Of a DNA stretch of 64,000 nucleotides, positions 6,850-64,000 are shown in pieces (position 1 is the first letter of the stretch; the number at the start of each line of letters is the position of its first letter). The notes under the pieces were generated by a model. The model was not told the DNA's origin, did not search any database, and was given only the letters and a program-made list of their open reading frames with translations. The position numbers were made by a program, and so were the translations under genes. Location of the stretch: NCBI RefSeq assembly GCF_056746865.1, contig NZ_CM163382.1; one strand, 5' to 3'.

Positions 6850-7628
6850 ATTGCTCTCCTTATATATTCATGATTTTCAGATTGTATATGCATGTGAGCT
6901 GCTCAAATCACTACATCTATCTGTAGTGGTATGCTGTTGAACAGCACCAGCAACTCACGAGCAAAACAATACATTTGCACAACCAAGAAATCAAATTGCG
7001 AGAAATGATTTAATTAACTGACTTCTAATAACACAATAACAACAAAGAAAGTCACAATATAAAAATAACTTAAACAATGCTTTTTGGTATACAAAATAAA
7101 AATCAAAATCACAATATTCGTAGGTTATTTTATGCAGACAAAAACAAAAAAAATCTTGTTATAATCTATGATATCAAGAGGAGGGGTAGTGACCAAAAAT
7201 TCTCCCCAGAAAAGCCCCCACAACATTAGTTTGAAAACGTGACGAAGTTCACAAAATTATCTTCTGGCGATAATAGAACTTGTAAGAGGGAGTTGATTTT
7301 TGCCAACTTTCTAAAGCTAAAGTGCAGACAAAAGATAATAATTGAATGAAAACGATACATATTTTCAGATGAAAGTGACGTGACTGTAGAGGGCTATAAC
7401 CGTAAAATCATTTGCGTCCTGAGCAATATGCAACAAAAGGGAATGCTCGTAAAAAAATCAGGAATAAACGCTAAGGATATCGTATTAGATTCAGCATCGT
7501 ATAATGCCACTGCATAACTGATTCCCATTTCGTAGAGGCTGTTAACTCTGTATCAATGTCCTGACAAAGGACTGTATCAAGTTTCTCTACTGGAAACAGC
7601 TATGCAATAGACGGAAGAATTTAACATT

Positions 7629-54607: not shown

Positions 54608-54882
54608 AATTTCTCGCTCAATATTTTGTAGGGCTTATTATTTTTTTCCGAGCCGCATCAAGGCGATATGCGGTCTACGTTTTTGCAGGCGAGTTATTAG
54701 AATAAAGAAATGATACGCGCGAGGTCAGAGAAAATCTTCACAATCAAGACTTTGAAATAACGGAGATGGATAAGAATTTTCTACTAAATTAATCGCAAGA
54801 GAATATTCATTCTCTATTTGCGGCAGATCACAAAAAAAAAGGTGCACATTTGTGCACCCAATGATGAAAGCTGACAGTAATG

Positions 54883-62724: not shown

Positions 62725-63663
62725 CTAACCAACTTCAATTAATTGCCTTCGTCTACACCCATTATAAGATGAATACTCTTTGGCTAATTCCACCAAAACC
62801 GATGCTGCTTTTTTAATACGATAATTTTTCGACCATACCGCGGCATATTGTGCCACAGGTAATGTTTCTTCAACCGGAATAGTAATAAATTGATTTGAAC
62901 CAAAAGGTGATGTCATATCACAAGGAATTACAGTTAAGAAATCAGCATTGAGAACAAGATTATAAATTGTCACGACTGAGTCGGTTTTAACGATGTTTTC
63001 AATACTGATGCCATTTCTTTGTAACGTGGTGAGCAGCTCGCTGTAGTACCCCATATTGGTTTGTGGCAACACCCACTGTTCGTTCTTCAACGACTCCAGC
63101 GTGGTGGTGCCGGTGCATGTTCGGGACTTACTGGCTACCAGCACAAACTCGGACTCGAACAGCGGCTCAACATGTAAATCCTGAAGCTTCATTTCTGCGC
63201 TTAACGTACCAATCGCAAAATCCAGTCGACCGTCGCGGATTGCCGGTAAGAACGAAGACAGTTGCGCTTCATACATAGAAACCTGCGCTTTCGGGAACAC
63301 CTCTTTGAACTTGTTGATCATCCCGGACATAAAAGTAAAACCAATCAATGAAGGAAAACCAAATGAGACTTCCACCACCGCCTCAGAAGACATACCGCTT
63401 ATCTCATTAACCATATTTTTCATTTCACGGGTAATGGATTCGGAACGGGAGAGTAACAATTGACCGGCAGGTGTTAATGTTACACCGGTATTTTTCCGCA
63501 CCACTAATTCCACGCCAAAATAATCTTCAATATCGTTAATGATTTTACTGACAGCCGGTTGAGTTAACCCTAATTCTTTTGCAGCCGAGCCGATAGAACC
63601 ACTTCTAATGACTTCCTGAAAGACTACCAGGTGCTGCGTTTTCGGAAGAAGAATAGTGCTCAT
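62725..63663 (-). CDS. tdcA: LysR-family activator of the tdc operon, 312 aa
   Basis: ORF 62725..63663; LysR-type HTH. Confidence 0.9.
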   Translation of the reverse strand: MSTILLPKTQHLVVFQEVIRSGSIGSAAKELGLTQPAVSKIINDIEDYFGVELVVRKNTGVTLTPAGQLLLSRSESITREMKNMVNEISGMSSEAVVEVSFGFPSLIGFTFMSGMINKFKEVFPKAQVSMYEAQLSSFLPAIRDGRLDFAIGTLSAEMKLQDLHVEPLFESEFVLVASKSRTCTGTTTLESLKNEQWVLPQTNMGYYSELLTTLQRNGISIENIVKTDSVVTIYNLVLNADFLTVIPCDMTSPFGSNQFITIPVEETLPVAQYAAVWSKNYRIKKAASVLVELAKEYSSYNGCRRRQLIEVG

Positions 63664-63726
63664 AACGACCTACGTTAATTACCTCATTGACGGCATGAAG
63701 TGTATCAAAATGAAATGAACAGGATA

Positions 63727-63742
63727 TGTGCGACCACTCACA
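63727..63742. promoter_or_regulatory. CRP-binding-site-like palindrome TGTGc-gaccac-TCACA upstream of tdcA
   Basis: 16-bp match to the TGTGA-N6-TCACA consensus 64-79 bp upstream of the tdcA start; the tdc operon is known to be cAMP-CRP dependent. Confidence 0.5.
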
Positions 63743-64000
63743 AATTAACTTTCAATACTTTCCATGGTATCGTTATTCCAATTAAATATCTTTATATATC
63801 AATAAGTTAAAGTATAAAAATCAGCATAAACCCTGATTTTTGTCAAAAAAAATGACGGGGATAACCATATTTTATGGCGATAACATCATTCGTTATGTGG
63901 TTAATACAAAAAAGGGGCTGAGACCATATTTCAAGCAATTACCGGATAATTACCAGGCAAATTTTGAGTTAAATTTAATGAGCAAGTTCTCAAATTTTAT

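Follow-up and report, generated by a model that had tools for sequence, protein, structure and literature searches.

A very probable cAMP-CRP activator site in the tdcABCDEFG promoter of Escherichia coli, with constant half-sites and constant promoter spacing among enterobacteria

The stretch of DNA considered here (64,000 nucleotides, hereafter the window) belongs to an E. coli chromosome and closes with the tdcA-tdcR intergenic region and the first codons of tdcR. Downstream of tdcA, the window holds tdcB, tdcC, tdcD, tdcE, tdcF, and tdcG in that order, and the features of the control region are collected in Table 1. From about -140 to the tdcA ATG, the sequence is base-for-base identical to that of K-12 MG1655, and since the promoter core is thus shared, the K-12 promoter literature applies directly to it. 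The window strain itself is not K-12: of its seven differences from MG1655, six fall at 63765-63803, just upstream of the site discussed below, and one lies near tdcR.

Table 1. Features of the tdcA-tdcR control region (window coordinates; functional roles are predicted)
Feature	Position	Strand	Basis and remarks
tdcA coding sequence	62725..63663	-	Open reading frame; LysR-type activator, first gene of tdcABCDEFG
Putative transcription start, G	63691	-	8 nt past the -10 hexamer, 28 nt before the ATG; G in 55 of 65 loci
Extended -10, TGaTACACT	63699..63707	-	Hexamer TACACT at 63704-63699, TG at 63707-63706; functional role inferred
-35 position, ATATCC	63722..63727	-	17-bp spacer; lacks the -35 consensus; overlaps the promoter-proximal CRP half-site
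CRP-binding core (predicted)	63727..63742	-	9/10 core bases, matrix score, and half-site conservation; full 22-bp site 63724-63745, centre 63734.5
IHF-like motif	63797..63809	-	TAACTTATTGATA (YAANNNNTTGATW); centre about -112 relative to G63691; candidate for the reported tdc IHF site
tdcR start	63979..64000	+	Divergent (MSKFSNF...); cut by the window end

A palindrome resembling a CRP site is found with its centre 71 nt from the tdcA ATG, and hence upstream of tdcA, as the first-pass annotation of this DNA had stated. It reads TGTGCGACCACTCACA on the plus strand and TGTGAGTGGTCGCACA on the minus strand, which is the tdcA sense. The earlier claim that it fits the CRP consensus is borne out, as nine of the ten bases of the core TGTGA-N6-TCACA agree (the site reads TGTGA-N6-GCACA). 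The only deviation, GCACA for TCACA, concerns the inner end of one half-site (its innermost base). Cores with at most one mismatch occur six times in the 64-kb window, compared with 2.0 +/- 1.2 expected from dinucleotide-preserving shuffles. The K-12 'tdc' sequence is one of the 18 that make up the Stormo-Hartzell CRP benchmark for motif-finding algorithms.

Scoring with a position weight matrix (PWM) had been proposed in that annotation as a check. We used a symmetrised 22-bp CRP matrix made from a set of 22 classic CRP sites, with the tdc site left out. These sites belong to the Stormo-Hartzell / Lawrence-Reilly collection, and the resulting matrix yields the textbook CRP consensus AAATGTGATCTAGATCACATTT. 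With 12.25 bits, the 22-mer at 63724-63745 comes close to the median of the training sites (12.6 bits), and it takes sixth place among the ~64,000 positions of the window. A score of at least 12.25 bits is expected at 1.85 positions per Markov-1 random sequence of 64 kb, and the chance expectation for such a match within the 315-bp tdcA-tdcR spacer is ~0.009. The score is typical of genuine CRP sites, yet alone it is not beyond chance across the whole 64-kb window. Because matches of similar score occur within genes (namely in the coding regions of aer, uxaC, bacA, and yhaK), the PWM score is uninformative as a sole test. It is the combination of location, conservation, and promoter geometry that lifts the tdc match above chance.

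Some other matches in the window deserve a brief mention. The top two, at 7235-7256 and 15027-15048, outscore the tdc site by a wide margin, with 18.1 and 18.0 bits, respectively; AAACGTGACGAAGTTCACAAAA extends across the tsaD start codon, adjoining the tsaD-rpsU spacer, and TAATTTGATTTAGATCGCAATT sits within the aer coding region. A CRP-type 22-mer on par with the tdc site (12.19 bits, rank 8) is found in the tdcG-cyuP spacer at 54814-54835, where it reads TTTTGTGATCTGCCGCAAATAG in the cyuP sense. The tdcG terminator hairpin GGTGCACAAATGTGCACC and its T-run immediately precede this 22-mer, the cyuP ATG follows ~215 nt downstream, and the 22-mer is a candidate for a direct CRP site of the cyuP operon.

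The conservation of the tdc site was followed in a set of 64 tdcA loci from ~20 enterobacterial genera (one genome per species), which together with the window gives 65 sequences. Among the genera are Escherichia, Citrobacter, Salmonella, Raoultella, Kluyvera, Enterobacter, Lelliottia, Yokenella, Trabulsiella, Pseudocitrobacter, and Cedecea. All but two of the sequences (63/65) have a CRP core with at most one mismatch, placed 68-73 nt ahead of the tdcA ATG; the exceptions are Cedecea, with one extra mismatch, and Leclercia NCTC13032, with a 1-bp insertion. Five loci (Raoultella and relatives) even carry the perfect TGTGA-N6-TCACA, and the N6 spacer occurs in at least 12 variants among the 65 loci. 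In a MAFFT alignment of all 65 loci, the mean over the ten half-site columns is 1.95 of 2 bits, compared with 1.25 bits in the spacer, and the GTG columns of both half-sites are identical in 65/65 sequences, except for one column with 64/65. Of all 5+N6+5 patterns in the 150-nt region ahead of tdcA, the 16-bp frame at 63727-63742 is the best conserved (1.95 bits vs a median of 0.95 bits). Constant half-sites around a free spacer are the footprint expected of a CRP-type dimer.

A similar picture emerges within the species. Among E. coli genomes, 4346 of 5387 show at least 99% identity over a 97-bp core that comprises the site, the -10, and the leader, and the adjoining 97 bp upstream (63761-63857) reach that level in only 240 of 5169, with 3043 at 90-95% and 282 at 80-90% identity.

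Between the CRP site and the ATG, only one other block is strongly conserved, namely a TAnnnT hexamer that reads TACACT in the window and TAGAAT in many genera. Its T, A, and final T are invariant (65/65 loci). The distance from the CRP centre to the first base of the hexamer is exactly 30.5 bp in 62 of the 65 loci, with the intervening 19 bp being essentially unconserved. A TGn precedes the hexamer wherever it is weak (TACACT or TAAACT; 36/36 loci) and never where it is one of the stronger versions TAGAAT, TAAAAT, and TACAAT (0/26). Owing to this trade-off and the fixed spacing, we read the hexamer as a real, functional -10. The perfect trade-off of -10 features across genera is, in its own right, a natural example of compensatory promoter evolution.

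A generic sigma-70 scan of 63300-64000 returned no -35/-10 pair. Such a null result is expected of an activator-dependent promoter, which the tdcA promoter would be, and does not count against a promoter here. The putative transcription start was placed at G63691 from the promoter geometry together with a published value of -43.5: Wu, Patil and Datta reportedly obtained, in 1992, a CAP footprint centred at -43.5 with IHF at ~-104. With the start at G63691, the CRP centre lies at -43.5, and with the hexamer set at -12..-7, it lies at -42.5; depending on the start base, the values span -41.5 to -43.5. The 30.5 bp from centre to hexamer at tdc compare with 29.5 bp in the canonical class II arrangement, and the site overlaps the -35 position, 1-2 bp upstream of -41.5. 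This predicted position is class II-type, overlapping the -35 region. A position incompatible with both class I and class II, which the first-pass annotation had named as evidence that would count against its reading, was thus not found, the centre lying at about -42.5 or -43.5 from the putative start. No entry for the tdc site or its transcription start was present in the supplements of the CRP ChIP-exo, PredCRP, CRPBSFinder, Kim 2012 TSS, and Cappable-seq papers; those studies used aerobic or glucose conditions, in which tdc is probably not expressed.

The sequence match and its location, the conservation of the half-sites and not of the spacer, the fixed spacing to the -10, the absent -35, and the independence from tdcR (see below) all point to 63727-63742 as the cAMP-CRP activator site of the tdcABCDEFG promoter. 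We hold this reading with high confidence, the binding itself, the exact start site, and the polymerase contacts being taken from the literature and from inference. Genomic SELEX with purified CRP has picked out tdcA, a known cAMP-CRP target (PMC3105977), which supports binding at the level of the region, and CRP, IHF, and TdcR are named as taking part in tdc regulation (PMC9426608). The earlier suggestion that a CRP site here would be consistent with catabolite control of tdc is hence supported by conservation and geometry as well as by the literature (PMC3105977, PMC9426608).

The palindrome could also serve a different dimeric regulator. Here, FNR comes to mind, since tdc is anaerobically induced and has been tagged 'FNR-activated (EcoCyc)' (PMC2634741), and so does TdcA, as LysR-type activators commonly sit over the -35 and TGTG-N8-CACA forms a dyad that could be its activation site. 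FNR, however, requires TTG, and both halves of the tdc site read TGTG, with a G at the very base that separates CRP (GTGA) from FNR (TTGA); TTGAT-N4-ATCAA is absent as well, and an FNR site was rejected on account of GTG standing in place of TTG in both half-sites. Against either protein, the conserved bases are exactly the TGTGA/CACA contacted by CRP, and the five loci of Raoultella and relatives depart from the window in the direction of a perfect CRP core. As for TdcA, Hagewood et al. reportedly placed it further upstream in the tdc promoter in 1994, which also argues against its binding here. It is thus very unlikely that FNR or TdcA is the protein that the site is made for, although either of them may co-occupy the site with CRP or compete for it.

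Assuming a CRP site, it might still be asked which of the two divergent genes it serves, as the spacer is common to both and the gene opposite tdcA was listed by Shimada et al. among the predicted additional CRP targets (PMC3105977). Under this alternative, the main target would be tdcR (start 63979), with the site ~245 bp ahead of the tdcR ATG, and tdcA would be affected only indirectly via TdcR. By tblastn, TdcR is found in Escherichia only, at 58-89% identity, apart from weak matches in some Citrobacter, and it is undetectable in 45 of the 64 loci, including those of Salmonella, Raoultella, Kluyvera, and Enterobacter. Of these 45 loci, 43 nonetheless retain the CRP site at the exact 30.5-bp spacing from the tdcA-side -10. 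As the site persists where tdcR is undetectable, the CRP element belongs to the tdcA promoter. In addition, the conserved -10 points toward tdcA, and hypervariable DNA separates the site from tdcR. A tdcR-directed site is extremely improbable in the light of these data and was rejected because the site is kept where tdcR is undetectable. TdcR itself (72 aa) is fast-evolving and patchy, being 89% identical where TdcA is 100% identical and 58% identical in E. albertii, where TdcA is 98% identical. Its patchiness and fast evolution question the generality, or even the reality, of its activator role.

That the palindrome, lying in an AT-rich spacer, resembles the consensus merely by chance and lacks a regulatory role has next to no probability and is effectively refuted by the conservation data: random 64-kb sequence does hold ~1.85 equally good sites, and several equally good matches lie inside the four genes named above, but the half-sites are invariant across ~20 genera as flanks and spacer drift, the spacing to the -10 is constant, the core is near-invariant in E. 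coli beside a hypervariable patch, and tdcA is a CRP target recovered by SELEX (PMC3105977).

Returning to the cAMP-CRP activator site, its proposed mode of action can be outlined as follows. In the absence of glucose, with cAMP at a high level, the TGTGA-N6-GCACA palindrome (63724-63745) would be bound by a CRP dimer. The bound dimer would overlap the missing -35 position, ~42-43 bp upstream of the transcription start, where it would recruit and activate RNA polymerase. The polymerase, in turn, would hold the promoter mainly via the extended -10 TGaTACACT. Such class II-type activation would bring tdc, and thus the anaerobic degradation of threonine and serine, under catabolite repression, with CRP working jointly with TdcA/TdcR and with IHF at a more upstream position. 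The site would account for the fact that, in E. coli, the fermentation of threonine and serine is confined to conditions in which better carbon sources are lacking.

The tdc CRP site is already known from publications going back to the early 1990s and can be regarded as textbook-level knowledge. What we add is the comparative picture of invariant half-sites, a 30.5-bp spacing, and a trade-off between TG and hexamer, which confirms the promoter architecture across the Enterobacteriaceae.

It is worthwhile to set the site beside some well-known CRP systems. The K-12 tdcABC CAP/CRP site (Wu, Patil and Datta 1992; Sawers 2001) is the same element, given the shared sequence from about -140 to the ATG. 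Its centre is at -43.5 if transcription starts at G63691, equal to the value reportedly published, and there is no difference within the site, the window strain deviating only outside of it. The galP1 promoter is class II, with CRP at -41.5 and 29.5 bp from the start of the hexamer. Like tdc, it has the CRP site over the -35 position, lacks a -35 hexamer, and offsets a weak -10 hexamer by a TGn extension; unlike galP1, tdc keeps 30.5 bp to the hexamer (62/65 loci) and additionally needs IHF, TdcA, and TdcR (PMC9426608). The lac CRP site shares with tdc the left half TGTGAGT and a 9/10 core. It is, however, of class I, centred at -61.5 and upstream of an existing -35, whereas the tdc site overlaps the -35 region.

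Further upstream, IHF control of tdc has been reported (PMC9426608, PMC10581059) and also holds in Klebsiella (PMC10581059). The IHF-like motif of Table 1 would, judged by its sequence and place, correspond to the reported tdc IHF site. A relaxed version of it is present at the same place in 31 of the 65 loci, with the TA..TTGA columns being conserved. The motif is contained in the patch at 63761-63857 that is unusually polymorphic in E. coli, and this patch presumably also contains the TdcA/TdcR-responsive DNA. The tdcA-tdcR spacer has furthermore been listed as an H-NS-associated 'promoter island' (PMC3661553).

One could speculate that the conserved 30.5 bp reflect a CRP that is deliberately off-register at tdc and unable to activate alone, needing the IHF bend and TdcA for a productive geometry. 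We consider this unlikely. If true, off-register CRP would be the structural basis for the unusual combination of catabolite and anaerobic control at tdc.

Finally, a few loci stood out. In Leclercia adecarboxylata NCTC13032 (L062, 2400-3440), the only locus with a CRP core disrupted by an indel (TGTGGAG...), tdcA is broken up, with ORFs of 131, 115, 82, and 83 aa; this reflects either a decayed or decaying operon or homopolymer errors in an indel-prone assembly. Three typical enterobacterial tdc loci carry labels from elsewhere, namely an uncultured Bacteroides MAG (L002), Chryseobacterium sp. 18061 (L036), and an uncultured Clostridium sp. (L061). The TdcA of the Bacteroides-labelled locus is 100% identical to that of the window, and all three assemblies are likely mis-binned or contaminated. 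In three E. coli strains (WP7-S17-ESBL-01 (L069), HR5-1, and HR12-1), an IS5 is present within tdcA, ~39 codons from its start. We rejected it as a control-region insertion because it sits inside the coding region, at about window position 63545, where it splits tdcA and leaves the CRP site and promoter intact.
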